Positions 7,534 through 60,458 of a stretch of 64,000 bases of DNA are shown in pieces. The translations under genes and the position numbers were made by a program. The DNA is from an uncultured Armatimonadetes bacterium. Lineage in GTDB: Bacteria; Armatimonadota; Hebobacteria; Hebobacterales; Hebobacteraceae. Numbering within the stretch: position 1 is the stretch's first letter; every line of letters starts with the position of its first letter. The stretch spans positions 452,031-516,030 of the forward strand of contig OY970296.1 in assembly GCA_963716175.1 (NCBI GenBank), read 5' to 3'. Under the pieces are notes generated by a model. That model worked only from the letters and a program-made list of their open reading frames with translations. It was not told where the DNA came from and made no database searches.

Positions 7534-9260
7534 GGATCCTTTTCGTCAGCCCCTTCCTCCCCTATCCGCCCACGGCTGGCGGCCACGCGCTGATCTGGGG
7601 CTGGCTGCGGCGCCTTGCCAGCAAGCACGAGATCGCGTTCGTGGGATTCTGCGAGCGAGAGGCGGACGCGGTGGGCGCCGACGAGGTGGCGAAGCACTGC
7701 GCCAGCATGCGAATACGTCTCCGCCGGCCGACGCCGCATGCCTACAGCTCCTTCGCGCAGGTCCCCCGATGGGTGAGCGAGTTCTTCTCGGCAGAGCTAG
7801 CAAGTGACCTGCGCGCGCTGGCGCGAGATTTCAGGCCGGAGGTGGCGCAGTTTCTGAGCACCAACATGGCGCAGTATGCGCGCGCGGTTGATGCCGCGCA
7901 TGTCATCACCGCGGTTGACGTCTCTTTTGTCGCCCATCGTAGGCGGATCGCAGCCGCGCGCGGACTCGAGCGTCTCCAGGCCCGGCTGGAGTGGCTGCGC
8001 ATGCTGCGCTATGAGGCGTCCGTCTTTCGCCGCGCCGATCACGTGATCGCAATGTCGCTCCGAGATGCAGAGATCATCAGGGCCGTCTCGCCTCGGGTGC
8101 CGAGCACCATCGTGCCTCCCGGCGTGGACCGGGAACTGCTCGCGCCCCGGCCGCGCCGGCCGGGGCCAGGCAGAGTGCTCTACCTGGGCCAGATGGAGCA
8201 CTTCCCCAACCTCGATGGTCTGCTCTTCCTCTATCGAGAGATCTGGCCCCGGGTTCGGCGCGCTCATCCAGAAGCTCGTCTCACCGTGGCCGGCCGCGGC
8301 GCGCGGGAGGAGCTGGCGCGCGTCGCGCCGCAGACCCTCGCTGCCATGGAGAGCGACCAGAGTGTGGACCTGGCGGGATTCGTGCCCGACCTCCAGGCGA
8401 CCATGGATCTCACCGCGGTCATGGCCGCGCCCCTGCGACTGGGATCGGGCGTGCGCACCAAGGTGATCGAGGCGATGGCCGCGGGGCTGCCGGTGGTGAC
8501 AACCACCCGGGGCGCGGAGGGCCTGGCGGTTGCGCACGAACGCGAGCTGCTCATCGCGGACGAGCCAGAGCAGTTCGCGCGGGAGCTGGTGCGCCTGCTC
8601 CGAGATCCGGAGCTGCAGGCGCGACTCTCCCGGGCCGGCCGCGAGCTGGCAGCTCGCGAGCATGACAACGATCAACTGGCGGCGCGGCTGGAGCGGGCCT
8701 TGATGGCAGCGGCAGGGTCTGCAGGGCGGGCACGTCTCGCATGCCCGCCGCAGGACGGCGAGGCGCGGGAGATGAGAGTCCTGATCCGATACCTCGCCGG
8801 CTATGTCTTCGACTTCTTCCGGGAGCGGGTGACCGCTGACGATTTCCGCGGCGAGCGCGTGCGCCGCGTCCTGGCGACGGCCGCGCTGGATGCGCGCGGC
8901 CAGGCTGCGGTGCGGTGCATGTTCCCGCAGGCCGTCCTGTATGCCGTCACTGCTCGCGCCAGCCTGGCCCAGGTTCGCCGGGGTCGGTTCGAGGCGAGCT
9001 GCATCTCCATGGCCGGCGGCGGCATGCGAGAGCGCTTGCTGGCTCTGCTCAGCGGCGCCCGGCACCAGCTGCTCATCCCTTCGCCGGACTACATCTACCG
9101 TCTGGGCATGCGGCAGGGAGGCCCGGCCCTCGCCTGGGCGGTGATAGACCGCTTCCTGGTCGCACCTGTCGCTCTGATGTGGTTCATCCTACTGGTTTGC
9201 TGGCTCTATGTGAGCGGATTGGTTGAGCGGACCGCGCAGCCAAAGGCGCAGGGAGGGTAG
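7530..9260 (+). CDS. Family 4 (GT-B) glycosyltransferase with a C-terminal GT9-N-like module and a TM helix
   Basis: VRILFVSPFLPYPPTAGGHA N-terminus and an EX7E-type motif IEAMAAGLPVVTTTRGAEGL. GTGA overlap with the upstream stop. The C-terminal 160 aa are the module plus the hydrophobic helix PVALMWFILLVCWLYVSGL. Confidence 0.8.
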   Translation: MRILFVSPFLPYPPTAGGHALIWGWLRRLASKHEIAFVGFCEREADAVGADEVAKHCASMRIRLRRPTPHAYSSFAQVPRWVSEFFSAELASDLRALARDFRPEVAQFLSTNMAQYARAVDAAHVITAVDVSFVAHRRRIAAARGLERLQARLEWLRMLRYEASVFRRADHVIAMSLRDAEIIRAVSPRVPSTIVPPGVDRELLAPRPRRPGPGRVLYLGQMEHFPNLDGLLFLYREIWPRVRRAHPEARLTVAGRGAREELARVAPQTLAAMESDQSVDLAGFVPDLQATMDLTAVMAAPLRLGSGVRTKVIEAMAAGLPVVTTTRGAEGLAVAHERELLIADEPEQFARELVRLLRDPELQARLSRAGRELAAREHDNDQLAARLERALMAAAGSAGRARLACPPQDGEAREMRVLIRYLAGYVFDFFRERVTADDFRGERVRRVLATAALDARGQAAVRCMFPQAVLYAVTARASLAQVRRGRFEASCISMAGGGMRERLLALLSGARHQLLIPSPDYIYRLGMRQGGPALAWAVIDRFLVAPVALMWFILLVCWLYVSGLVERTAQPKAQGG

Positions 9261-33716: not shown

Positions 33717-36269
33717 TTGCCCGCCTCCGGCGGGGACGGCGCTGTCGAATCTCGCGACAGGCGGGAAACCGCGCCCCAACGAAGAACCAAGCGCCAGATC
33801 AGGGAGGGCCTAGAGGTGGCGATACAAGACTTCGAGCTCAGTGCCGACCAACTCCGCGTGGTCTGCGATGCCAGCAGCCTGGGGTTCGAGACCACGGCGG
33901 AGCTGCCCACGCTGGAGGACAGCGTGGGCCAGGACCGCGCCATGGCCGCGATAGACTTCGGGCTGGAAGTGAAGACGCCGGGCTACAACATCTTCGCGGT
34001 GGGGCCGACTGGGACGGGGCGCATGTTCGCGGTGCTATCCCGGGCCCGGGAGGCAGCGGCGAAGCAGCCCACCCCGGATGACTGGTGCTATGTCAACAAC
34101 TTCGACGATGCCCGCCGGCCGGTGGCGCTGCGCCTGCCGGCGGGCCGCGCGGTCGAGTTCTCCCGGGAAGTGGAAGAGCTAATCCAGATGTGCAAGCAGG
34201 AGATTCCGCGCGCCTTCGAAAGCGAGGCCTACGAGCAGCGCAAGGAAGCGGCGATCGGGGACGTGCAGGCCGAGCGCAACCGCTTGCTGCGCCAACTGGA
34301 CGAGGAGGCGCGGGCCGAGGGGCTGGTGATCCAGGCCACGCCCATGGGGATTATCTCGCTGCCGCTGGCCGACGGCAAGGCCATGTCCCGGGAGCAGTAC
34401 ATGCAACTCCCTCCCGAGGAGCGAGACGCGATAGACAAGAAGATGGAGCGGCTCCGCGACCGGATCGCGGAAGGGCTGGGGCAGGCGCGGCAGCTTGAGA
34501 AAGAGGCGCGAAAGCGGGTGGAGGAGCTGGATGCTCAGATCGCGATGATGACTATCGGCCATCGCTTCGAGGAAGTGAAGGCCAAGTACCAGGACCATGC
34601 CAGTGTGGTGACGCATCTCGACCGCCTGGCTCAGGATGTGCTGCAGCACCTGGACGAGTTCCGCCCCGGGGAATCACCCCAGGGCGAGGCGCCGCCCACG
34701 GAGGCGGTTCCGCCCCGCTATCGGGTCAACGTCCTGGTGACCAACGAGAAGGGCGCCGGGGCGCCAGTGATGCAGGAGCAGAGCCCCACCTACTACAACC
34801 TGGTCGGAAAGCTGGAGTACCGGCCGGTGGCCGGGGGCGCGATCACGGATTTCACCTTGATCAAGCCAGGCGCATTCCACCTCGCCAACGGCGGCTACCT
34901 GATCCTCCAGGCACTGGAGGTGCTGCTCAACCCCTTCGCCTGGGAGGCGCTCAAGCGGACCATGCGCAGCCGCAAGGCCACCATCGAGAACATCGGAGAG
35001 CAGTACAGTCCGGTCCCGGCCGCCACTCTGCTCCCGGAGCCGATCCCCCTTGACACCAAGGTGATCCTGGTGGGCTCGCCCCTGCTCTATTTCCTGCTCT
35101 ACCAGTGGGATGAGGATTTCGGCAAGCTGTTCAAGGTGAAGGCCGACTTCGATGTGGACATGACGGCCAGCACCCAGGCCAACCGCAGCTATGCCGCCTT
35201 CATGGCCACCCACTGCCGCAACCACGGCCTCCGCGAGCTGACCAAGGAAGCCGTGGCCAGGGTGATCGAATACGGGATGCGGCTGGCGGCCGATCAGGAG
35301 CGGCTCTCCACTCGCTTCGCCGCCGTCGCCGACCTGCTCACCGAGGCCAACTTCTGGGCCCAGCGGGCGGGAGCCGAGTTGATCGGGGCCGAGCACGTGG
35401 ACCAGGCCTTGGAGCACAAGGAGTACCGCTCCCGCCGGCTCGCGGACCGCCTCTTCGAGTTCATCGCACGGGGCGATCTCATCGTGGACGTGACCGGCGC
35501 GGTGCCCGGGCAGGTCAACGGTCTGGCCGTGCTGGATCTGGGGGATTACGCCTTCGGACGACCCTCGCGCATCACCGCCCGGGTCACGCCCGGCCGCTCC
35601 GGTGTGGTCAACATCGAGCGCGAGGCGCGCCTGGGCGGGGATATCCAGCACAAGGCGGTGATGATCCTCACCGGCTATCTCGCTGGCAGCTATGCCTCGG
35701 AGGCCCCCCTCTCTGTTACCGCCAGCCTCTCCTTCGAGCAATCGTACGAGCTGGTGGAGGGGGATTCCGCCTCCTGCGCCGAGCTCTACGCCATCCTCTC
35801 CATGCTCGCCGACGCGCCCATTCGCCAGGGCATCGCGGTCACCGGCTCCATGGACCAGAATGGGAACGTGCAGCCCATCGGCGGGGCCAATCAGAAGATC
35901 GAGGGCTTCTTCGCCACCTGCAAGCTGAAGGGATTAGCCGGGGATCAGGGGGTGATGCTCCCGCGCCAGAACATCAAGAACCTGACGCTGAAGCCAGAGG
36001 TGGTGGAGGCCGTGAGGGAGGGTAAGTTCCACATCTGGGCGGTCTCCACTGTGGACGAGGGTGTCGAGGTTCTCACTGGCGTGAGAGCCGGCTCGCCCAG
36101 AGAGGCGGATACCATCCACGGGCGGGTGGCCGCCCGGCTGCGCAAGTTCGCGGATGCCCTGAGCGGTGTGAAAGAAGAGAGAATCAAGCAGATCATTGAG
36201 CTGCCTCCCAGCGCCGCCACCCCCCGTCCCCCCACCCCTCCGCCACCACCCATACCGCGACACGGTTGA
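33717..36269 (+). CDS. Lon-like ATP-dependent protease (AAA+ module plus S16 Lon_C peptidase domain), Pro-rich C-terminal tail
   Basis: GQDRAMAAIDFGL and NIFAVGPTGTGR (Walker A) AAA+ region. Lon_C proteolytic domain with catalytic Ser context TGSMDQNGNVQPIGGANQKIEGFF. Tail PRPPTPPPPPIPRHG. Confidence 0.8.
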   Translation: MPASGGDGAVESRDRRETAPQRRTKRQIREGLEVAIQDFELSADQLRVVCDASSLGFETTAELPTLEDSVGQDRAMAAIDFGLEVKTPGYNIFAVGPTGTGRMFAVLSRAREAAAKQPTPDDWCYVNNFDDARRPVALRLPAGRAVEFSREVEELIQMCKQEIPRAFESEAYEQRKEAAIGDVQAERNRLLRQLDEEARAEGLVIQATPMGIISLPLADGKAMSREQYMQLPPEERDAIDKKMERLRDRIAEGLGQARQLEKEARKRVEELDAQIAMMTIGHRFEEVKAKYQDHASVVTHLDRLAQDVLQHLDEFRPGESPQGEAPPTEAVPPRYRVNVLVTNEKGAGAPVMQEQSPTYYNLVGKLEYRPVAGGAITDFTLIKPGAFHLANGGYLILQALEVLLNPFAWEALKRTMRSRKATIENIGEQYSPVPAATLLPEPIPLDTKVILVGSPLLYFLLYQWDEDFGKLFKVKADFDVDMTASTQANRSYAAFMATHCRNHGLRELTKEAVARVIEYGMRLAADQERLSTRFAAVADLLTEANFWAQRAGAELIGAEHVDQALEHKEYRSRRLADRLFEFIARGDLIVDVTGAVPGQVNGLAVLDLGDYAFGRPSRITARVTPGRSGVVNIEREARLGGDIQHKAVMILTGYLAGSYASEAPLSVTASLSFEQSYELVEGDSASCAELYAILSMLADAPIRQGIAVTGSMDQNGNVQPIGGANQKIEGFFATCKLKGLAGDQGVMLPRQNIKNLTLKPEVVEAVREGKFHIWAVSTVDEGVEVLTGVRAGSPREADTIHGRVAARLRKFADALSGVKEERIKQIIELPPSAATPRPPTPPPPPIPRHG

Positions 36270-36463
36270 GAGGGGTTCCGCCGCTGGGCAGGGGCTTGCC
36301 TCTGCCATTCCGGGGCGGTATGTCAGAGTTCACCCGCCTCACGAGGGCATGCCGGCCATTTCCCTTGGGGTTGGGCAGGAGACTCGCTCCTGCCCCTGCC
36401 AGGCCTCGTCCCACATCGAGCCTACGCCATTGGGCGCGGTCGTGTCCAGGCGCTAGCTCGAGG

Positions 36464-37252
36464 TCACCGGTCGTGCAGAGATGTCTGTTTCGAGAATCTC
36501 GCATCAAGGTAGCTGATTATGGTTCTCGAAGCATTGATCACCAGCAGGGCCTCTTCTTCTTCTAGCAATGCTTGGCTAGGGTGAGCGACGCTCGCGGCGT
36601 TCCTGATAGGGTTGAGGGCATCCAATATCCCACCAAATGCTTGAAGGATTCTCTCGATATCCTGTCGTCTTGAGCCCAGGTCCTGTAGCGCAACGTGTTG
36701 CTGGCGTAAGAGTCTGAGCAACCTAGCGGGTGAGTCATCTCTTGAGTATGGAATGCTGGCATCCTCACACACTGCTCGCAGGTAGCCGTGCACGGCTGTA
36801 TGTATACGATCAACGCCGCTGACTGCTCCGCTTGCTCGAAGCAGCGTTTCGGTATCGCTGATCGCTCGCTCGACTACGCGCGAGGTGATCTTGGGTGCCG
36901 GGCTTCCAACTGGCTGCCCCTCCAGTCTGCTTATCATCTTGCGAATCTCGCTCTGTAACTCCTGAGTACGAGTGGACGCGGCCGACTTCGTTGACACAGG
37001 AAATCTCTCAATGACCCCGCGGAGTATCTGGGCCTGTACGTTTGGGGGAGAACCTTTCAGAACCGCTATGAACCTTTCCCGCGTCGTTCCTTCATACTGA
37101 TACGGGTCGATGTCAAGCTCGCAGTACTCCGGGTAGAACTCCGCGTGTGTCCGATAGCTGAAATCCCCAAGGTAGCCGCCAGATACCCCTATATAGCGGT
37201 TGACTACTTTCATGATCTCGGCATTGGTCAGTCCTGATGCTGGCATTGGCAT
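36464..37252 (-). CDS. AbiJ-like abortive-infection protein with a C-terminal HEPN (Abi_C) domain; lies in a low-GC island
   Basis: C-terminal Rx4-6H HEPN motif (IRNAASVAHPSQALLEEEEALLVINASRTIISYLD). Region GC is visibly below the flanking DNA. Start taken at the internal Met of the 296-aa ORF. Confidence 0.55.
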   Translation of the reverse strand: MPMPASGLTNAEIMKVVNRYIGVSGGYLGDFSYRTHAEFYPEYCELDIDPYQYEGTTRERFIAVLKGSPPNVQAQILRGVIERFPVSTKSAASTRTQELQSEIRKMISRLEGQPVGSPAPKITSRVVERAISDTETLLRASGAVSGVDRIHTAVHGYLRAVCEDASIPYSRDDSPARLLRLLRQQHVALQDLGSRRQDIERILQAFGGILDALNPIRNAASVAHPSQALLEEEEALLVINASRTIISYLDARFSKQTSLHDR

Positions 37253-37256
37253 GCTC

Positions 37257-37293
37257 TCCGTAGGGCAGGAGCGTTTCTCCTGCCAGTTGTACG
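37257..37293. repeat. REP-like palindromic element, GTAGGGCAGG family (GTAGGGCAGGAG-cgttt-CTCCTGCC)
   Basis: 8-bp perfect stem with a 5-nt loop; shares the GTAGGGCAGGAG head with the copy at 53321. Confidence 0.6.
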
Positions 37294-37302
37294 GTAGCGG
37301 GC

Positions 37303-37375
37303 CTGGACCGCCCGCCCTACAGAACCGCGGTCCTGCAAACGGCCCAGCGGGCATGGAATGCCCGCCCTACAGCGG
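37303..37375. repeat. REP-like element, GGGCAT-n4-ATGCCCGCCCTACA family; overlaps the radical-SAM stop codon
   Basis: CGCCCGCCCTACAG ... GGGCATggaaATGCCCGCCCTACAG; same arm as the copies at 47516 and 53355. Confidence 0.6.
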
Positions 37376-38392
37376 CGGCCCCTCATACGCTAGATAGCAG
37401 GCGCGGCAGAAGGCCGGGTTGCGGCCGGTGCGAATCTGCTCCCGCAGGCGCTGCATCGCCGAGCCGTTCCAGGCGGTGGCGAAGCTGGCGCCCGACTCCA
37501 GCGCATTGCCCAGCAGCAAGCCCTCTGGGCCCGCGGCATAAGGACACGGGGCCACGTCTCCCCGGACCGTGATCGCAGTCCTGCCCCAGGGCCAGCGGCA
37601 GGGCCTGCCCTCCGCCGGCTTCCGCGGCGGGGGAGGCGCTTCGGGACAGCGGAACTCGAGATTCGCCGCCAGGGCGAGGCGGCGGGCCTCGGGGAGCACG
37701 CGCTGTAGATCCTGGCCCAGCACGCGGCGCTCCGCCACCACGCGCTCCAGGGACTCAGACCCGAAGTTGGTGAGCTTGGCGGTGCACAGCAGGCCGTCCA
37801 CTCCCCACTCCGCGCAGCGCTGAACCAGCGCCGGAATCTGTGGGGCCGATTCCCGCTGGATCACATGCCAGACCCGGATCACCGGGGACCGCCGCCGGCC
37901 TCGCTCCCGCACCAGGGCCGCGATCCCCTGGGAGATGCGCTCCAGGTCGGACCCAGGCCGCAGCCGGGCATGAGTCTCTGGATCGGCGGCATCAACCGAG
38001 ATGTTGAGATGGTTGAGGCCACAGGTGAGGAGCTGGCGACGTGTCTCCTCGCCCAGCACGCTGCCATTGGTGGTGGTGAGCACCCGCACTCGGCGGCGCC
38101 GCGCCTCCTGCACCAGGCCGAAGAAATCCGGGTTCAGCAAGGGCTCGCCCAGCCCCACCAGCTTGATCCGATAGACGGTGGGAAGCTGGTCGAGCAGTCG
38201 GGAGAAATCGGCGAGTGAGAGGTGGGCGCGCGGGAAAGCGCCATCGGTGCTGGGGCAATGGGGACAGCGGTAGTTGCAGAAGCTGGTGGGCTCGATGTCC
38301 GCCCGCGCCGGGAGCGCGCGGCTCGCCGCCGGGCGGTGGCGGTAGGCTTGCCGCAGGCGCAGGGAGTTCAGCAAGGCGGAAGCTGGCCGCAT
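37367..38392 (-). CDS. Radical SAM enzyme with a C-terminal SPASM/twitch-like Cys cluster
   Basis: CNYRCPHC (CxxxCxxC) radical SAM motif. C-terminal CRWPWGRTAITVRGDVAPCPY...CRACY auxiliary cluster cysteines. Start at the internal Met (MRPASALL) of the 427-aa ORF, which itself opens on TTG. Confidence 0.8.
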   Translation of the reverse strand: MRPASALLNSLRLRQAYRHRPAASRALPARADIEPTSFCNYRCPHCPSTDGAFPRAHLSLADFSRLLDQLPTVYRIKLVGLGEPLLNPDFFGLVQEARRRRVRVLTTTNGSVLGEETRRQLLTCGLNHLNISVDAADPETHARLRPGSDLERISQGIAALVRERGRRRSPVIRVWHVIQRESAPQIPALVQRCAEWGVDGLLCTAKLTNFGSESLERVVAERRVLGQDLQRVLPEARRLALAANLEFRCPEAPPPPRKPAEGRPCRWPWGRTAITVRGDVAPCPYAAGPEGLLLGNALESGASFATAWNGSAMQRLREQIRTGRNPAFCRACYLAYEGPPL

Positions 38393-38403
38393 GCCGCGTC
38401 CCC

Positions 38404-39139
38404 TCAGAACAGCAGCGAGAAGGTGATGGGGCGAACCCGCCAGGATCCCTCTTCCTTCACCAGCCAGAGGTTCCCGCTGACGTGCTTGCGGAGAAGCCCG
38501 GCGAAGCGCAGGGTGGCATCGAAATCCACCCGGATCCCGTTCAGGGTAGTGGGCCGCCCGGCCACCTCCAGGCGGGTCATCTTCACCCAGTGGGGTGGGC
38601 GGCGAGGCACATTCCACCAGTGGAAGGTGAGTGCCTTCATCCCCCCCCAATCAGACCGCAGCCAGGCGTGCAAGAAGTCGAACGCCGCCTGCCGCACCGC
38701 GGGCTCCTGGCGCCGGTCGGCCTTCGTGGGGCTGCGGTCGGGGACCTGCGCCTCCGGAGGCAGCTCGTTGAACCAGTAGAGCTGGCGCACCTGCCAGCTC
38801 TTGCTCGCGCCCTCCTCCACGTAGCGCAGCACCATGATGCCGCGGGTCGGGAGATTGGGGTCGGTCATGGGTCCCGCGGAACTCAATCGCCCCGATCCTC
38901 CCATCCGCCCTCTGTTTGTCGAGCTGAGGCATGTGCGCGAACGGGCAGGGGCCATAGAGATTGGCCTTCTGATTGGGAAGCATGCGCTTGATCGCGTCTC
39001 GGTCGTTGCGGCTGAAGGCGAAGAGGAAATCCCGCGCCACCTGCGCCGCCTCCGGGGGCATACCCTGGGCCCTGCTCGGACTCCCCCAGGCCATCGCCAG
39101 TCCAACAGTCAGCATCACGGCCGCGATTTTGGTCTTCAT
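38404..39139 (-). CDS. Secreted hypothetical protein (signal peptide plus NTF2/SnoaL-like region), apparently split over two frames
   Basis: Frame X: MKTKIAAVMLTVGLAMAWGSPSRAQG signal plus AAQVARDFLFAFSRNDRDAIKRML. Frame Y from about 38869: MVLRYVEEGASKSWQVRQLYWFNE...LWLVKEEGSWRVRPITFSLLF. Both look protein-like and the join is near 38870-38930. Confidence 0.35.
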
Positions 39140-39453
39140 GGCTCTCCCGAAGCTGATGTTACCTGGTTTCGACGAGAAAGCCAAGCACTTGGGCCAGGAG
39201 CTGCCGATTGCGCGCAGGCAAAGAGGAAGGAGGCCGCGGCGCGAGGTATAAAGTCTACTGGTGGTTGCGGTGCCGTCGCAGTTACCAGACCGACGAGCAG
39301 CCCCCTGGCCACACCTTGCAAGGCGGCTCGACCTCGCAGGCGGTGCACCTGCTGGCAAGGCGAGCCGCAGACGGCGGGCCACCGGGATGCAGCGCAGCCT
39401 GGCGGGCTTGCGCGCGGGCCGCAGTAGCTCTAGTAGGAGGCAAGATATCCATC

Positions 39454-40896
39454 ATGTCAGTGGTAGCGCGACCCACGCCCCGCGCGCGGCCGCGGACCGC
39501 GGGTGAAGCCCGAGCGCGACAGATCCGGTGGTGGCACTACCTGCTCGCCGGCACCGGCCTGGTGACGCTGGGTGGAATGGCCTATGGCTTCTACGCCGCC
39601 TGGTTCGCCGTCACCCATGTCCGGACCAGCTACGCGCGGGTCAGTGGCTATGTTGTAGTTCTGTCGGCGAAATCCGACACCCGCGTCAAGCGGGTGCTGG
39701 TGCGGACGGGAGAGAAGGTCCGCGAGGGGCAAACGCTGGCCATCCTGGACAACGCCGATGTCGCCGCCCAGGCCGAGCAGGCCAAGGCCACGCTGCTGGC
39801 GCGGGAAAGCGCCCTCAACCGGGCGGAGGCCGAGCTGGATATGACCATCCGGCAGAGCGCGGCCAGCATCGAGGAGGCGGAGGCGCAGCTGGCCGCCTCC
39901 CAGGCGCGGCTCTCCCAGGCGGAGGCAGAGAAGGAGATGGCCTCCCGCACCGAGCGGGATGAAGTGAAGCGCGCCCAGGCCGAGCTGGCCGTGGCCAAAG
40001 CGCGGCTGAGGCAAGTGGAGGTGGGCCCCCGTCCCCAGGAGATCGAGCAGGAGAAGGCCGACCTGGCTTCCGCGGAGTCCCAATCGGCCAGTGCCGCGGC
40101 CACCTTGCGGCGGATGGAGAAGCTGCAGAAAGAAGGCGCGGTCTCGGAGCAGGCGCTGGACGCGGCTCGCACGGATCTGGAGGTGGCCCAGGCCGCGGTG
40201 AACTTGCGTCGCCAGAAGTTGAGCCTGCTGCAAGCCGGCAGCCGGCCGGAGGATATCGAGGCCGCACGACAAGCAGTGACCTCCGCCGAGGCCGCCGTGG
40301 CGCTGGCCACGGCCAAGAGCTTCGACAGCGAGATGAAGGTCCAGCAAGTGGCCACCCGGGTGGCGGAGAAGCGGCAGGCTGCGGCTGGAGTTCGGGGGGC
40401 CCAGTCCCTGCAGCGCACGGTAGCCCTCAAGGAACAGGACGTGGTGGCACAGCGAGCCGCAGTGGCCGAGGCGAAGGCCGCCCTGGAAGCGGCCAAGGCT
40501 CGTGTCTCGGACACGGAGCTGCGCAGCACGGACAACGGGGTAGTGGTGGCGGGACAGGGCCAGAGTATTCACGAGGGCGAGTCAGTCACCAACGGACAGC
40601 CCATCGTCACCATCGTCTCCACCGCGCGGCCTTTCTGGATCAGCGCCTCCGTCTCCGAACTGCAGGTGTCCCAGGTGAAGGAAGGGCAGCCGGCGCTGAT
40701 CTGGATTGACGCCTTCCGCAGGCAGGTCTTCCATGGCACGGTGTCACAAGTGGGAGGGGCCACCGAGTTCTCGGCCGCGGACACCCCGTGGGCCTTGAAG
40801 CAGGTACCACTGAGGCTCAGCTTCGACCCCGGCAAAGTGAAGGACAGTCTCAAGCCCGGCATGAGCTGTCGGGTGTGGATAGACGTGCGGCACTGA
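39454..40896 (+). CDS. HlyD-family secretion protein / efflux periplasmic adaptor (membrane fusion protein)
   Basis: N-terminal TM anchor, long coiled-coil region (AEAQLAASQARLSQAEAEKE...) and a C-terminal beta-barrel region (VTIVSTARPFWISASVSELQVSQVKEGQPALIWIDAF). AGGAGG RBS upstream. Confidence 0.85.
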   Translation: MSVVARPTPRARPRTAGEARARQIRWWHYLLAGTGLVTLGGMAYGFYAAWFAVTHVRTSYARVSGYVVVLSAKSDTRVKRVLVRTGEKVREGQTLAILDNADVAAQAEQAKATLLARESALNRAEAELDMTIRQSAASIEEAEAQLAASQARLSQAEAEKEMASRTERDEVKRAQAELAVAKARLRQVEVGPRPQEIEQEKADLASAESQSASAAATLRRMEKLQKEGAVSEQALDAARTDLEVAQAAVNLRRQKLSLLQAGSRPEDIEAARQAVTSAEAAVALATAKSFDSEMKVQQVATRVAEKRQAAAGVRGAQSLQRTVALKEQDVVAQRAAVAEAKAALEAAKARVSDTELRSTDNGVVVAGQGQSIHEGESVTNGQPIVTIVSTARPFWISASVSELQVSQVKEGQPALIWIDAFRRQVFHGTVSQVGGATEFSAADTPWALKQVPLRLSFDPGKVKDSLKPGMSCRVWIDVRH

Positions 40897-40900
40897 CGCG

Positions 40901-40929
40901 GTGGGGCGCGGGCCCAGGCCGCGCCCCCA
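40901..40929. terminator. GC hairpin GGGGCGCGG-gcccagg-CCGCGCCCC between convergent genes
   Basis: 9-bp perfect stem read from the sequence; no strong U-tract. Confidence 0.35.
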
Positions 40930-40933
40930 ACTG

Positions 40934-41527
40934 CTATACCTGTTGGTCCAGGATTCTCCTGCTGCGCTCGTCGAGGGCGTGCATATCCTCAATCTCGTAG
41001 CGGTTGCCATCGGCGTCCTGGAGCATGAGGCGCCCCTTTGCCAGCACCCGCAAGTCCTCCCGGTCTCGCACATCGAAAACGCGATAGCCGCGGTCGGTCT
41101 CCACCTCCCAGCGGGAGGCGCCGTGAGCGTCCTCGATGTCGTAGATGACGGTGATCTTGGGCACGAAGTAGGCCCGGCTTAGCTCCTCGGTCAGCACCCG
41201 CCGGCTCTCGCAGTCGAGCCCCTTGGGGTTGCGCAGCAGCACCGCCTCCCGCCCTTTCTCGTCCACCAGGCTCAGGTAGTCGGCGACCTCGGAGATGGGG
41301 AAAACCGGCGCCGGCTTCAGGTCCACGTGTTCGGTCTTGCCATCCACCAACACGTGGAGCCGCCGGAACTCGTCTCGCCAGATGCGCAGCCGGCTGGCAT
41401 CAACGATCTCCAGCCGCTGCAGTTCCTGGTCCCAGCTCGCGGCGCTGCCCAGGCGCTCCTGGGAGGGCCCAGTCTCGCCCGGCGCCGGCGCGCCAGTCTG
41501 CTCTGTCTGATCCTGGGGATCTTCCAC
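40934..41527 (-). CDS. DUF1854-like protein (commonly paired with ABC transporter genes)
   Basis: Composition and motifs (LRNPKGLDCESRRVLTEELSRAYFVPKITVIYDIED) recall DUF1854 proteins found next to ABC exporters. Co-directional with the adjacent ABC gene. Assignment from memory only. Confidence 0.5.
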   Translation of the reverse strand: MEDPQDQTEQTGAPAPGETGPSQERLGSAASWDQELQRLEIVDASRLRIWRDEFRRLHVLVDGKTEHVDLKPAPVFPISEVADYLSLVDEKGREAVLLRNPKGLDCESRRVLTEELSRAYFVPKITVIYDIEDAHGASRWEVETDRGYRVFDVRDREDLRVLAKGRLMLQDADGNRYEIEDMHALDERSRRILDQQV

Positions 41528-41583
41528 GGGTTTCCTCGCGAGGGCGTGACCCTCGCCTCGCCGGGTACTGCTAGCTGCGGTCC

Positions 41584-43851
41584 CTACCAGGCCCGCACTC
41601 TGGACAGCTCCGACTGGAGCTTGCAGAGCCGGCTGTAGAGCCCATCGGACTCCAACAGCTCATCGTGGCTGCCGATCTCGCCGATGCGGCCATGCTCCAT
41701 CACGACGATCTTTGTCGCCTTGCGCAGGGTCGAGAGCCGGTGCGCGATGGCGAACGTGGTCCGATTCGCCACCAGGCGCTCCAACGCCTCCTGGATCAGC
41801 ATCTCGGTCTCGGTGTCAACCGAGGAGGTGGCCTCGTCCAGGATGAGAATCCGCGGGTTCTTGAGAATGGCGCGGGCGATGGAGACGCGCTGGCGCTCGC
41901 CACCGGACATCAACTGCCCCCGCTCGCCGGTGAGGGTATCGTAGCCATGGGGCAGGTTGACGATGAAGTCGTGGGCGTTGGCCGCCTTGGCGGCGGCCAC
42001 GATCTCCTCTGGCTTGGCCTCGGGCGCCCCGTAGGAGATGTTCTCGGCCACCGTGCCGTGGAAGAGGAAGGGCTCCTGCAGCACCACGCCGATCTGCTGG
42101 CGCAGGGAGCGCAGGGAGAGCTCCCGCACGTCATATCCGTCTATCCGGACCTCGCCCTCGTCGACATCGTAGAAGCGGCTCAGCAGTTGCACCAGGGTGC
42201 TCTTCCCGGCTCCGCTGGGACCCACCAGCCCGATCACTTCCCCCGGCTCGGCCACGAAGCTGACCTCCTGGAGTACGGGCTTGCCGGGCTCATAGCTGAA
42301 GGTGACGTTGTCGAACTCCACCCGCCCCTCGAGCCGGGGCAGGACCACCGAGCCCGGCGCCTCCGGGATCTCGGGCGCGGTATCGAGCACCTCGAACACG
42401 CGCTCCGCGGCGGTGAGGGCGTGCTGCACCCGGTGGTTCATCTCGCCCAGCATCTGCACCGGCATGTAGAACTGCCACATGAGCTGGGTGAACATGACCA
42501 GGGTGCCCACCGTGGTCAGGCCCAGCACCGCCTGGTAGCCGCCATAGCCGTAGACCACGAGCGAGCCCACGGAGGTGATAAGGCCGATGGCCGGGAAGAA
42601 AAACGTCCACAGCTTGGCCGCATTCAGCTCCTGGGTGAACAGCGCGCCGCTGCGATCCCGGAATCGCTTCGACTCCCGGTGCTCCTGAGCGAAGGACTTG
42701 ACCACTCTGATCCCCGGGATGGAATCGGCCAGCACCGCGCTCAGGCCCGCCCACCGTCGCCACACCTTCTGGTAGACCTGGTGGATCAGGCGGCCAAACC
42801 AGTAAGTGCCGATGGCGATGAAGGGGGTGGGCAAGAGGGTAAGCGCGGCCAGCGCGGGGTTGGCCGCGAACAGCATCACGCAGATCACGGGGATGGTCAG
42901 CAGGTTGATGATGATCTGCTGCAGGCCATCGGCGATGAAGTACTGCAAGCGCATGATGTCGTTGGTGACGCGGGACATGATCTGGCCGGTCTGCTTCCGG
43001 CTGAAGAACCCGAGCGAGAGCATCTGCAGGTGGTCGTAAAGCTCGGTTCGCATGTCCAGCACCACCCGCGCCCCCAGCCACTCCATCATGTAGCCGCGGG
43101 CCATGCTCACCACGGTCCGCACCAGGTAGATCAAGAGCAGCCAGGTCACCACCAGGGAGAGCCCCGGCAGGTACTTGGGCCTGAGCACGCCGTCGAAGAG
43201 ATAGCGGGTGACGTAGGCCGGCAGCAGGTTCAGCACAGTCAGGACGATGCTCAGGAGGAAGCCCACGATCGCCACCGTGTGGTAGGGCCGCAGGTAGCCG
43301 ATGAGGCGCGCGAGCAGTTGCCCTCGCTTCATGCAGAAAGGGCAGACCTCAGACCAGCGAGGCAGCGCCCGCCCGCAGGTGGGGCAGCGGACGCTGCGCT
43401 GCGGGCCGTGTCCCTTGCGGCCGCCCTCTTCCTGTTTCTCGTCCTCCGAAGAGAGGCGGCGCAGGATGTAGTAGGCGCGCGACATCTGCGGAGCCACAGA
43501 GCGGCTGAACCGCAGCAGCTCCACCGACTCCGAGCCCGTGACCGCCTCCAGCGAGCCGCTGCCGATGAAATCGCGCAGGCGGAAGCGGCGGACATCGGAC
43601 AGAGGCAAGTCTACCTCCACCCGGGCCGCGCCGTTCTCGGGCGCCAGAGTCGCCAGCCGCCGGTCAGTGACCAGCAGCCACCGGTCGCCGTACTCCCCCT
43701 CAGGCGTGATGTCGCTGCGGAGGCTGATCAGGCGCCGCTCGTCCTCCTGCATCAGGCGAGCGACCTCCGCCTCCACGGCCGCAGGCAGCTCCTGCTGGAG
43801 CTCGGCGTCGAGCAGCTTATCTATCTGTTGGCGTTGGGCTTCTGTCATCGT
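41584..43851 (-). CDS. ABC exporter (fused permease and ATPase) with an N-terminal bacterial PH-like domain and a zinc ribbon
   Basis: Walker A GPSGAGKSTL, signature LSGGERQRVSIARA and Walker B ILILDEATS. Six TM helices. N-terminal RWLLVTDRRLATL...VELLRF (PH-like) and CPTCGRALPRWSEVCPFC. Confidence 0.85.
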   Translation of the reverse strand, partial: TMTEAQRQQIDKLLDAELQQELPAAVEAEVARLMQEDERRLISLRSDITPEGEYGDRWLLVTDRRLATLAPENGAARVEVDLPLSDVRRFRLRDFIGSGSLEAVTGSESVELLRFSRSVAPQMSRAYYILRRLSSEDEKQEEGGRKGHGPQRSVRCPTCGRALPRWSEVCPFCMKRGQLLARLIGYLRPYHTVAIVGFLLSIVLTVLNLLPAYVTRYLFDGVLRPKYLPGLSLVVTWLLLIYLVRTVVSMARGYMMEWLGARVVLDMRTELYDHLQMLSLGFFSRKQTGQIMSRVTNDIMRLQYFIADGLQQIIINLLTIPVICVMLFAANPALAALTLLPTPFIAIGTYWFGRLIHQVYQKVWRRWAGLSAVLADSIPGIRVVKSFAQEHRESKRFRDRSGALFTQELNAAKLWTFFFPAIGLITSVGSLVVYGYGGYQAVLGLTTVGTLVMFTQLMWQFYMPVQMLGEMNHRVQHALTAAERVFEVLDTAPEIPEAPGSVVLPRLEGRVEFDNVTFSYEPGKPVLQEVSFVAEPGEVIGLVGPSGAGKSTLVQLLSRFYDVDEGEVRIDGYDVRELSLRSLRQQIGVVLQEPFLFHGTVAENISYGAPEAKPEEIVAAAKAANAHDFIVNLPHGYDTLTGERGQLMSGGERQRVSIARAILKNPRILILDEATSSVDTETEMLIQEALERLVANRTTFAIAHRLSTLRKATKIVVMEHGRIGEIGSHDELLESDGLYSRLCKLQSELSRVRAW

Positions 43852-44198
43852 GCTCTTCCCGCGCGCACGCCGGCTTGGCCACAGGCCGGGCCGGCGCACC
43901 TCATCATGCCCTAATTTCCACGAGAATGCAAGTTCTTCCCTCCTTGCTCCGTTGGATATGGGCGGCCACATATACCGCGGACACAGCCAAAAAACTTGTG
44001 CGCGAATGCCAGGGATGTGGTATCCTCACACGGAAATGCAGTCTGGAATCGCGGTGGTCCCGCGGACGTTAACTCCCTCTTGAAAGGGGGTGGCACGGGT
44101 GAGCTGTGGAAGCTGTGGGAAGAAGGCGGCCCCGAAGAAGACCAAGAAGAAGAAGTAGGCCGCAGCAGTAGCGCCCGCCACGCGCGGGAACTGAACCG

Positions 44199-53320: not shown

Positions 53321-53383
53321 TCGTAGGGCAGGAGCCTGCCTCCTGCCCCCTTCTCTGTAGGGCGGGCATGCCTATGCCCGCCG
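53321..53383. repeat. Two adjacent REP-like palindromes: TCGTAGGGCAGGAG-cctgc-CTCCTGCCC and TGTAGGGCGGGCAT-gcct-ATGCCCGCC
   Basis: The first matches the 37257 copy and the second the 37303/47516 copies, which links the two sub-families. Confidence 0.65.
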
Positions 53384-58117: not shown

Positions 58118-59056
58118 GTGCCGTCCGTCGCCATCATCGGTGAGCTCAACCTGGACCTGATCGTGACCGGCGCGCCCGGCCTGCCGGAGCCCGGCCTGGA
58201 GAAGCTGGTCGAGGGGATGGAGCTAACCCTGGGCAGCTCCTCCGCCATCATCGCCGCCCAGTTCGCGCGGCTGGGCGATGATGTGCTCTTCATCAGCAAA
58301 GTGGGGGGCGATGACTTCGGCCGCCGGGCGCTGGAGTTCCTGCGCAGCATCGGCGTGCCCACCGGCGCCGTTGCCGTCCAGCCGCCCCTACGGAGCGGCC
58401 TGACGATCTCGATTGCGGTCGCCGGCGAGCGCGCCATGCTCACTCAACTGGGCTGCATCGAGGAGATGCGCTGGCAGGATGTGGACTTCGATCTCCTGCG
58501 CGGCCGCCAGCACCTGCACATCAGCTCCTTCTACCTCCAGCGCAACCTGCGCCCGGACATCGGCCGCATCTTCGCGCGCGCCCACCAGATCGGCCTCACC
58601 ACCTCCCTCGATACCGGCTGGCCCAGCGGGGGCGAGGTCAACGGCAACCTGGAGAGCTGCTGGCCGCACCTCGATGTCTTCCTGCCCAATGAAGTGGAGG
58701 CGATGCATCTCACCGGGCGCGACTCCGTGGAAGAGGCGCTGGAGGTGTTGGGCCAGCGTGTGCCCACCGCGGTGGTCAAGCTGGGCGCCAGTGGCGCCAT
58801 TGCCCGCCAGGGAGAGCGGATCGCCCGGCGCGCTGCCTTCGCAGTAGACGTGGTCGAGACCACCGGGGCCGGCGATTCGTTCAACGGCGGCTTCCTCCAC
58901 GGTTACCTGTCCCGCGTCGACCTCACCGATTGCCTCGACCTGGGCCTGGCTTGTGGCGGGTTGTCCACCCGCGCGGCTGGAGGCACAACCTCACAAGCCA
59001 CGCTCGCGGAGGCGATGCGGTTCATCCACACCGCCCCACGGCGGGCCGCGGCGTAG
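58118..59056 (+). CDS. PfkB-family carbohydrate kinase (ribokinase/fructokinase-like)
   Basis: N-terminal GELNLDL and C-terminal VVETTGAGDSFNGGFLHG (the PfkB signature). Confidence 0.85.
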   Translation: MPSVAIIGELNLDLIVTGAPGLPEPGLEKLVEGMELTLGSSSAIIAAQFARLGDDVLFISKVGGDDFGRRALEFLRSIGVPTGAVAVQPPLRSGLTISIAVAGERAMLTQLGCIEEMRWQDVDFDLLRGRQHLHISSFYLQRNLRPDIGRIFARAHQIGLTTSLDTGWPSGGEVNGNLESCWPHLDVFLPNEVEAMHLTGRDSVEEALEVLGQRVPTAVVKLGASGAIARQGERIARRAAFAVDVVETTGAGDSFNGGFLHGYLSRVDLTDCLDLGLACGGLSTRAAGGTTSQATLAEAMRFIHTAPRRAAA

Positions 59057-59189
59057 GGGCGCAATTCATTGCGCCCAGAGGACGGCTGGGCGTGATGAAT
59101 CACACCCCTACAGGTCTCTGTTGCCCTGCTGCTCGTTCTCCATTAGAATGTCACCAGTCCTGCGCAAGCGCGCGGCAAGGGGCGGTGCT

Positions 59190-60458
59190 ATGCAAGCCAT
59201 CTTCCTCATCATTGGCATACTGGTCGGGGCAGCGGTGGGGTGGTTGTGGGCGAACTGGCGCGGGGCGGGGCGCCTGCAGGCCGAACGGGAGCGACTCGGG
59301 GCGGCTCAGGCCGAGGCCGAGACGAGGGCGCAGGCCGAGCGCGAGCAGCGCGTCGCCGCCGAGACCCGGCTTCAAGAGGTGGGAAAGCAGCTCACCGATC
59401 GGGACACTCTGATCGCTGCGGCAAAACAACAGCTTGCTGACACCTTCAGAGCGTTGTCTTCTGATGCCCTGCGCGACAACAGCCAGGCCTTCGTGGAGCG
59501 AGCGGAGCAGTCTCTCGAACCGGTGAGGGAGACGCTGAGGCGCTACGAAGACCAGATACGCTCACTGGAAGGGCTCAACCGAGAGGTCTATGGGAACATC
59601 AGCCGCCAAGTGACAAGTCTGCTAACGAGCGAGCAGCAGTTGCAGCGAGAGACGGTTAACCTCGTCAACGCGTTACGACGGCCGCATGTGCGCGGTAAGT
59701 GGGGCGAGTTGACCTTGCATCGCGCGGTTGAACTGGCAGGGATGTCAGAGCACGTAGACTACCTTGAGCAAGTGACCTCTTCGGCCGACAGCGGGAGGAT
59801 CCGGCCCGACATGGTCGTCACACTTCCGAACGGAAGGCAGGTGCTGGTGGATGTAAAGACTCCCCTTGACGCCTATCTCACCGCGTTGGAAGCCAGCTCG
59901 GAAGAGGAACGAAAGGCCTGTCTATTGCGGCACTGCCAGCAGATTCGCCAGCATATGAACGCATTGGCAGGCAAGTCGTATTGGGAAGGGTTCAGATCGG
60001 CTGCTGATTTCGTGGTGATGTTCATACCGGGCGAGTCCTTCCTCTGCGAAGCGGCCGCCAGCGACCCGGCCCTGCTGGATGACGGCGCACAGAAGAACGT
60101 CATCCTTGCAACTCCCACTACTTTCATTGCCCTGTTGCGAGCCATAAACTTGGGCTGGAGGGAGGAAAGGCTCGCCAAGAACGCTGAGAAGATCAGTGAA
60201 GCGGGCCGACAGCTTTACGACGGGGTTCGCACTTTCACTGATCATCTTCTGGAGGTGGGCCAAAGGCTAGACACTGCTGCCAAGTCATATAACAAGGCGA
60301 TTGCCTCGCTCATGAGCCGCGTCTTACCGAGGGCACGCAGGCTCCGGGAACTGGACGCCGGAACCGGCGCGGATTTGCCGGAACCGGCGCTGATAGAGAC
60401 TCAAGTCCGGTATCTGGAGAGACCAGAGGAGCCAGAGGAGCCCGCACAAGGCCCGTGA
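59190..60458 (+). CDS. rmuC: DNA recombination protein RmuC
   Basis: N-terminal TM, long coiled coil and C-terminal RmuC nuclease-like region (VRGKWGELTLHRAVELAGM...FVVMFIPGESF...ILATPTTFIALL). Start at the internal Met of the 501-aa ORF. Confidence 0.85.
   Translation: MQAIFLIIGILVGAAVGWLWANWRGAGRLQAERERLGAAQAEAETRAQAEREQRVAAETRLQEVGKQLTDRDTLIAAAKQQLADTFRALSSDALRDNSQAFVERAEQSLEPVRETLRRYEDQIRSLEGLNREVYGNISRQVTSLLTSEQQLQRETVNLVNALRRPHVRGKWGELTLHRAVELAGMSEHVDYLEQVTSSADSGRIRPDMVVTLPNGRQVLVDVKTPLDAYLTALEASSEEERKACLLRHCQQIRQHMNALAGKSYWEGFRSAADFVVMFIPGESFLCEAAASDPALLDDGAQKNVILATPTTFIALLRAINLGWREERLAKNAEKISEAGRQLYDGVRTFTDHLLEVGQRLDTAAKSYNKAIASLMSRVLPRARRLRELDAGTGADLPEPALIETQVRYLERPEEPEEPAQGP

Follow-up and report, generated by a model that had tools for sequence, protein, structure and literature searches.

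The minus-strand gene at positions 36464 to 37246 of the window (the whole 64 kb stretch of Armatimonadetes contig OY970296.1; every coordinate below is given in window positions) probably encodes an acquired, self-contained Abi_C/HEPN ribonuclease (RNase) defence protein under the control of its own N-terminal domain. What was computed here is the match to Abi_C, the HEPN fold, the invariance of the catalytic residues, the gene's foreign composition, the sites that are empty in relatives and the settings of homologues (solitary, in defence islands and on plasmids). Evidence for RNase and anti-phage activity comes from relatives in the literature, SadR and Taranis, and the function of the Abi protein itself is predicted by analogy with them. 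The gene and the parts of its product are as follows:

36464-37246, minus strand: predicted Abi_C/HEPN defence gene (260 amino acids; an alternative ATG at 37252 gives 262 amino acids)
36917-37234, minus strand: N-terminal domain (residues ~5-110), made up of five helices and a beta hairpin that follows helix 1
36479-36886, minus strand: C-terminal HEPN domain (residues ~121-256), which contains the Pfam Abi_C match
36506-36712, minus strand: Pfam Abi_C match (residues 179-247 in the 260-residue numbering, equal to 181-249 in the 262-residue reading)
36581-36604, minus strand: predicted catalytic motif R215-N216-x5-H222 (RNAASVAH; 260-residue numbering)

The C-terminal half of the protein carries the family assignment. 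An earlier note, made from the letters of this DNA alone, had recognized an HEPN motif (IRNAASVAH) within an Abi_C-like C-terminal region, and both observations hold. Pfam Abi_C (PF14355) is matched with an E-value of 2.1e-13 and 50.6 bits (cut-off 24) over model positions 3-81 of 83, and R215, N216 and H222 are unchanged across 69 aligned homologues, the R-N-x5-H motif being kept in distant plasmid homologues too. The AlphaFold2 model of the protein (mean predicted local distance difference test score, pLDDT, 82.5) has the helical-bundle fold of HEPN domains, and the HEPN toxins 8xdj, 5yep and 7ae2 are among its top structural matches. The same note had called the gene AbiJ-type, a label that survives for the C-terminal half, where the PADLOC AbiJ model PDLC02347 aligns at model positions 140-273 of 281 only (22.1 bits, E 2.5e-5), and fails for the N-terminal domain, which has no detectable AbiJ_NTD match.

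A database search returned 1938 homologues, the best of them 72-73% identical. The best 120 (58-73% identity, mostly ~250 amino acids) come from Anaerolineales, Planctomycetes and cyanobacteria and are nearly all aligned across 92-98% of the query; homologues, when named, carry the name 'abortive infection family protein'. At 50% identity, 1197 clusters match the whole protein, a count that includes proteins with one of the two domains only. The Abi gene is a further member of the known Abi_C/HEPN RNase family and represents no novel type of system. Exact look-ups of the 262- and 260-residue products found no match, a PHROGs search gave no meaningful match, the phage genome collection gave no match, and a profile search of PDB sequences returned nothing significant.

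The N-terminal domain was described in the earlier note as helical and unassigned, and it has stayed so: a Pfam scan of 35 members of this domain found no family even at E <= 10. Modelled alone, it reaches a pLDDT of 85.8 and a predicted template modelling score (pTM) of 0.82, and it has the signature L..E...(x9)G...GY...F.......F...(x15)GT. AbiJ_NTD matches are likewise lacking in two plasmid homologues; the AbiJ_NTD comparison covers the families detectable with Pfam or CD-search models, namely NTD3, NTD4 and NTD5 according to PMC13590631. In a search of cluster representatives the domain was found ahead of TIR domains at 60-64% identity in P0269, P0207 and P0223, and at 68% identity in P0222, which has a weak, sub-threshold AbiJ_NTD4 match downstream of it. 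Conversely, the HEPN half is located behind unrelated N-terminal domains in P0193 and P0205. The N-terminal domain is modular and exchangeable between HEPN and TIR effectors. Five further proteins (P0127, P0129, P0130, P0145 and P0182) carry an additional domain of 120-230 amino acids, without a family, ahead of it, and stand-alone proteins of ~110-140 amino acids that consist of this domain only occur on long contigs (e.g., P0297 and P0324). Short proteins and fragments were all that a search with the domain by itself brought up.

When the N-terminal domain structure was compared with PDB structures, CARD, PYD and bacterial death-like domains recurred as weakly similar folds. It is conceivable, if a long shot, that the modelled domain is an undescribed death-fold-type immune module that drives homotypic assembly of its effector upon a conserved trigger. 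Were this true, death-fold-type signalling would operate within single-polypeptide bacterial defence proteins, and the reading would explain an N-terminal domain at least as conserved as the nuclease. The domain is, in any case, a reasonable target for learning what Abi_C proteins sense.

The open reading frame (ORF) is present on the minus strand, as had been claimed, with its stop codon at 36464-36466. Its start, formerly placed at ATG 37252, is most likely the second in-frame ATG at 37246, two codons further downstream, because a database fragment that is 100% identical (P0196) begins there and a GGAGAG Shine-Dalgarno sequence lies 7 nt before it. Homologues start about five to eight residues into the 262-residue reading.

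The guanine-plus-cytosine (GC) content of the gene, 54.5%, is lower than in every other window of 789 nt across the 64 kb (mean 67.0%, standard deviation 2.7, z = -4.6), and at third codon positions (GC3) it reaches 58.6% as against 78-86% in four neighbouring genes. These two measures make the dip real and place it far outside the local background, bearing out the low-GC island that was proposed from visual inspection. The dip is limited to approximately 36450-37260, i.e., it ends with the Abi gene.

The gene lies directly downstream of a radical S-adenosylmethionine (SAM)/SPASM gene, as the earlier note stated, within an inserted accessory segment:

36270-37366, no strand: inserted segment, flanked by the stop codons of two genes, one for a Lon-like protease (TGA, 36267-36269) and the other the radical SAM/SPASM gene (37367-37369)

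A scan of GTDB species representatives found no relative of the Lon-like protein above 49% identity, and a metagenome scan found five contigs (L090 to L094) with a Lon-like protease that is 75-79% identical. The gene order in L090, L093 and L094 is Lon-like protease, radical SAM/SPASM gene (on the opposite strand), small protein and HlyD; L091 stops inside the radical SAM gene and L092 just past the Lon-like gene. By protein-match coordinates, the Lon-like and radical SAM genes of L090, L091 and L093 lie 0-60 nt apart, with no Abi gene between them. Read base by base, L090 has its pair of stop codons overlapping in CTAG, which leaves zero intergenic DNA. The same junction in L094 holds ~930 nt with an ORF of 250 amino acids (8030-8782, minus strand of L094), which is read as a SAM-dependent methyltransferase from motifs recognized by eye rather than from a family scan. 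This ORF has the orientation of the Abi gene and a GC content of 58.8%, as against 67.2% in the rest of its contig. In alignments, the homology of L090 and L094 to the window stops exactly at both gene ends, and the Abi insert and the L094 insert share no sequence.

Because the junction is empty in L090, L091 and L093 and holds unrelated cargo in L094, it is a recurrent insertion point. The Abi gene, in turn, is best described as a horizontally acquired single-gene insertion, given its atypical GC and GC3, the empty sites in relatives and the different cargo in L094; the horizontal acquisition suspected in the earlier note is upheld by the same GC3 and syntenic relatives. Six homologues that were checked have 38-53% GC, which suggests a donor of lower GC followed by partial adjustment to the composition of the host. 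The radical SAM protein ends in …EGPPL* in the window, in …YEGPAAP* in L094 and in …WSGP* in L090; since these relatives end differently, its C-terminus appears to have been remodelled by the insertion or by a repetitive extragenic palindromic (REP) element, a unit of which contains or abuts the final residues and the stop codon in the window.

Two other modes of entry were considered and rejected. Exchange of cassettes between conserved flanks does not fit, as the spacers on either side of the Abi gene show no homology to those of the L094 methyltransferase. Neither does a classical integrase-mediated genomic island: Pfam found neither an integrase nor a transposase domain in those neighbouring genes that were scanned, the only tRNA of the window is 7 kb away and none is adjacent, and the borders show just a weak inverted repeat. 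The Lon-like neighbour was also considered as a defence protease of the BrxL type from bacteriophage exclusion (BREX) systems and rejected, its domains being of LonB/LonC type and its gene syntenic in relatives without the island. On the other side, window positions 37367-43971 hold a block of the radical SAM/SPASM gene, a small conserved protein, an HlyD-family protein and an ABC transporter (ABC_membrane and ABC_tran). This block is syntenic in relatives as far as HlyD and looks like a cluster for peptide maturation and export.

The genomic contexts of homologues point to defence. No conserved partner gene was found across eight homologue neighbourhoods, and in most of the eight, recognized genes of defence or toxin-antitoxin systems are no more than a few kb away. 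These include CRISPR-Cas with PemK; YafQ, GmrSD and HEPN_RiboL-PSP; BrnA; a ResIII restriction enzyme with a caspase-like protease; HsdR; and Gabija-like OLD and UvrD genes with a Schlafen protein. One neighbourhood (L087) shows no such genes, and another (L083) has just two families that were read as defence-associated. Homologues also occur on plasmids: 154 plasmids gave matches, of which 38 cover at least 80% of the Abi protein. The mobilizable plasmid pSTW0522-60-3 of Enterobacter kobei carries a full-length homologue (WP_015060232.1; 29% identity, E 2e-22) downstream, by two small genes, of a restriction-modification pair that consists of an Eco57I-type methylase and a type-2 endonuclease. 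A second full-length homologue (WP_301102281.1; 37% identity, E 6e-59) lies amid insertion sequence (IS) elements on pJS1-2 of Geobacillus zalihae.

Taken as an acquired Abi_C/HEPN defence RNase of the abortive-infection type, the gene would have entered the junction of two convergent chromosomal genes as a single unit, probably from a donor of lower GC. Two HEPN domains of its product would presumably pair, so that their R-N-x5-H motifs make one composite RNase site, and the N-terminal domain, as a regulator or sensor, may hold the enzyme off by auto-inhibition until infection provides some trigger. Once activated, the RNase would cut single-stranded RNA indiscriminately, and translation and phage production would halt.

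Several observations weigh against this reading. An NCBIfam search of the protein gave zero matches, and the 22-bit PADLOC match to AbiJ covers the C-terminal half only. The gene lies outside any defence island, its neighbours being the Lon-like protease and the radical SAM/HlyD/ABC cluster. Functional experiments are limited to relatives without this N-terminal domain. The core of the N-terminal domain has a mean pairwise identity of 73% as against 67% for the RNase domain, and conservation that equals or exceeds that of the nuclease is unusual if the domain senses phage proteins, which evolve fast. A search upstream of the gene found no sigma-70-like promoter. Finally, a near-identical strain carries a premature stop, and the gene may therefore be dispensable or costly. 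This last observation comes from strain contig L173 (ENA ERZ27248180 k141_673646), which is 98.8% identical to window positions 36737-40038 and has the insert and its REPs as well. Its stop codon is the following:

36988, minus strand: nonsense polymorphism at codon 87 (K87), AAG to TAG, in L173

The TAG is one of two differences between L173 and the window in 510 nt and would be either a very recent inactivation or a sequencing or assembly artefact; if real, the allele fits a costly, dispensable defence gene.

The nonsense allele leads to the first alternative, namely that the gene is a decaying or silent passenger, a recent acquisition that is unexpressed or unused in this host. The lack of a recognizable promoter also favours this alternative, as does the upstream 120 nt, which consists of three stable hairpins (over 134 nt upstream the folding is strong, with z = -2.8; that of the downstream spacer is unexceptional, z = -1.3). 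No intrinsic terminator turned up in a search around the gene. Against decay, however, the ORF of the window is intact and keeps every family-invariant residue, the Shine-Dalgarno sequence is correctly spaced, and the nonsense allele may reflect a minority variant or a mistake in assembly. Because the Abi and radical SAM genes share a strand, read-through transcription from the radical SAM gene is possible. A passenger is therefore considered unlikely. With the empty site, the filled site, the site with alternative cargo and the nonsense allele all visible among related sequences, the locus is a clean, well-bounded case of a single predicted defence gene entering a chromosome.

It is also improbable that the protein is the toxin of a toxin-antitoxin module, either HEPN-MNT-like (type II/VII) or of type III with an RNA antitoxin like AbiF and AbiV. 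The HEPN toxins among the structural matches lend this some weight, as do the toxin-antitoxin genes that homologues often adjoin and the precedent of AbiV and AbiF, which are type III toxin-antitoxin systems (PMC13064643). A partner is nevertheless missing: none of the eight contexts shares a conserved neighbour with the others, and no MNT nucleotidyltransferase stands beside the Abi gene. An RNA antitoxin is equally wanting, since Tandem Repeats Finder detected no non-coding array within 700 nt upstream or 500 nt downstream, whether at the Abi gene itself or at the eight homologue loci, and an Rfam scan of the window gave no family beyond one tRNA. The fused N-terminal domain would, moreover, be an obvious regulator in cis.

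A set of palindromes surrounds the gene, which the earlier note had described as two REP-like elements upstream. They are real REPs and the outermost does lie over the radical SAM stop codon, but there are three upstream rather than two, and two more hairpins downstream:

37260-37284, plus strand: REP unit GTAGGG-CAGGAG-n5-CTCCTGCC, immediately upstream of the Shine-Dalgarno sequence and start; in the minus-strand RNA it folds into a hairpin of 8 bp
37296-37322, minus strand: degenerate REP unit (AGCGGGCCTGGACCGCCCGCCCTACAG on the plus strand), belongs to direct repeat family D1 and shares 89% identity with the unit at 37346-37372; GCCCGCCCTACAG family
37346-37372, minus strand: REP unit GTAGGGCGGGCAT-n3-ATGCCCGC (minus strand), in which CTA at 37367-37369 is the radical SAM stop codon
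36370-36394, plus strand: REP-like hairpin GTTGGG-CAGGAG-n5-CTCCTGCC, downstream of the Abi gene; a D2 direct repeat with 80% identity across 25 nt
36287-36306, plus strand: hairpin GGCAGGGG-CTTG-CCTCTGCC, just past the Lon-like stop codon, without a GTAG lead; related to repeats D4 and I4

The hairpins at 36370-36394 and 37260-37284 have an identical stem in the same orientation. A GTAGGG (or GTTGGG) lead is present on four of the five hairpins and missing at 36287-36306. The family as a whole consists of GTAGGG followed by a GC-rich stem of 8-10 bp, with the variants GGCGGGCATG, GGCAGGAG, GGCAGGTCC and others. Approximately 15 hairpin-bearing copies are found among the 31 GTAGGG sites of the window, and the core GCCCGCCCTACAG occurs 9 times as against 0.3 expected. 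Copies are distributed window-wide (e.g., at 9963, 15423, 20369, 47539, 48444, 52454, 53323 and 53357), and the combination of a GTAG lead, an imperfect palindrome and many extragenic copies is that of REP elements. GTAG-lead REP elements are recognized by REP-associated tyrosine transposases (RAYTs). The REPs of the window resemble RAYT-associated REPs in their GTAG(GG) lead, GC-rich stem of 8-10 bp, short loop and many extragenic copies, as well as in their several stem variants and their clusters beside stop codons. No RAYT gene was identified among the window ORFs scanned, which were not searched systematically for RAYT. Elsewhere in the window, an RmuC-family gene (~59100-60458, plus strand; Pfam E 1.5e-91) coincides with a second, milder low-GC stretch (59350-60400, 56-60% GC) and is bracketed by GTAGGG-hairpin REPs at 59053 (plus), 59111 (minus) and 60471 (plus).

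REPs of the GTAGGG type are much rarer in the contigs that are 75-79% related (L090-L094). Because the empty site of L090 has neither REPs nor intergenic DNA, and because REPs are rare in relatives and window-wide here, the REPs probably spread into the intergenic DNA after the insertion rather than creating the hotspot. The earlier suggestion of insertion at a repeat hotspot is accordingly right as to the hotspot, which the L094 methyltransferase at the same junction attests, while the repeats as its cause are probably in the wrong order.

That the Abi gene is REP-mobilized cargo, with the hairpins at 36370-36394 and 37260-37284 acting like the subterminal hairpins of IS200/IS605 elements and moved by a RAYT, is very improbable: GTAG-type REPs with identical stems do flank the gene in direct orientation, the mildly low-GC RmuC gene (59.1-60.5 kb) is also REP-bracketed, and an imperfect inverted repeat GAGGGG[TT]CCGCCGCTG stands exactly at both ends of the insert (36270-36286 and 37369-37385), but the REPs are GC-rich, window-wide and found also without an Abi gene (e.g., at 53323), and no GTAGGG REPs accompany the L094 methyltransferase insert in the stretch that was read. 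Further, the hairpins did not arrive with the Abi gene, because the low-GC tract reaches no further than the gene itself; the score of the inverted repeat is marginally above background, being reached by ~1% of shuffled or random controls, and its right copy partly overlaps the last radical SAM codons, which are conserved in L094. No transposase was identified, although no exhaustive search was made.

The predicted Abi_C/HEPN RNase can be compared with several known systems, and nothing found here overturns current understanding. SadR of Staphylococcus aureus, an Abi_C protein with the motif RNEYGDAH, cleaves single-stranded RNA as well as total RNA and protects against phage and plasmids, and both cleavage of single-stranded RNA and defence are lost in its R225A, N226A and H232A mutants (PMC13590631). 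Native polyacrylamide gel electrophoresis gave ~66 kDa for its 30 kDa chain, roughly double the mass of a monomer (PMC13590631). Compared by its published description, SadR is like the Abi protein in length (266 as against 260 amino acids), in being encoded by a single gene, in its C-terminal Abi_C/HEPN domain and in the spacing of R-N-x5-H, and each of the two genes occupies an insertion hotspot next to a chromosomal gene that is conserved. The two differ in host phylum and in GC, and the N-terminal domain here is without a Pfam match. Abi_C proteins have been sorted by N-terminal domain into five types, with none, AbiJ-NTD3, AbiJ-NTD4, AbiJ-NTD5 or Sdh5 (PMC13590631).

Taranis, an Abi_C protein from a cassette of the Vibrio cholerae superintegron, is listed among the anti-phage systems of Vibrio integrons, and its N-terminus is reported to be distantly related to AbiJ_NTD5 (bioRxiv 10.1101/2024.07.02.601686). 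Like the product of the Abi gene, it is an Abi_C protein that is encoded by one gene and has an N-terminal domain of the variable kind. Taranis is a small mobile cassette in an integron (attC), whereas the Abi gene here is at a gene junction with REPs.

AbiJ of Lactococcus lactis (Abi-859) is likewise a single-gene abortive-infection determinant and is homologous in its C-terminal HEPN/Abi_C half. Its N-terminal 139 model positions are unmatched by the Abi protein, which is therefore not a full-length AbiJ. The mechanism of AbiJ is not known, and escape mutations map to phage single-stranded DNA-annealing proteins (PMC13064643). Features described for the AbiJ-NTD2 and AbiJ-NTD5 architectures (Anantharaman et al. 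2013, PMC3710099) recur here, and none of the 35 members of the N-terminal domain matches an AbiJ_NTD family in Pfam. The two full-length plasmid homologues, WP_015060232.1 and WP_301102281.1, share both the N-terminal domain and the R-N-x5-H motif with the Abi protein; they are distant in sequence and plasmid-borne, in contrast to the chromosomal gene described here.

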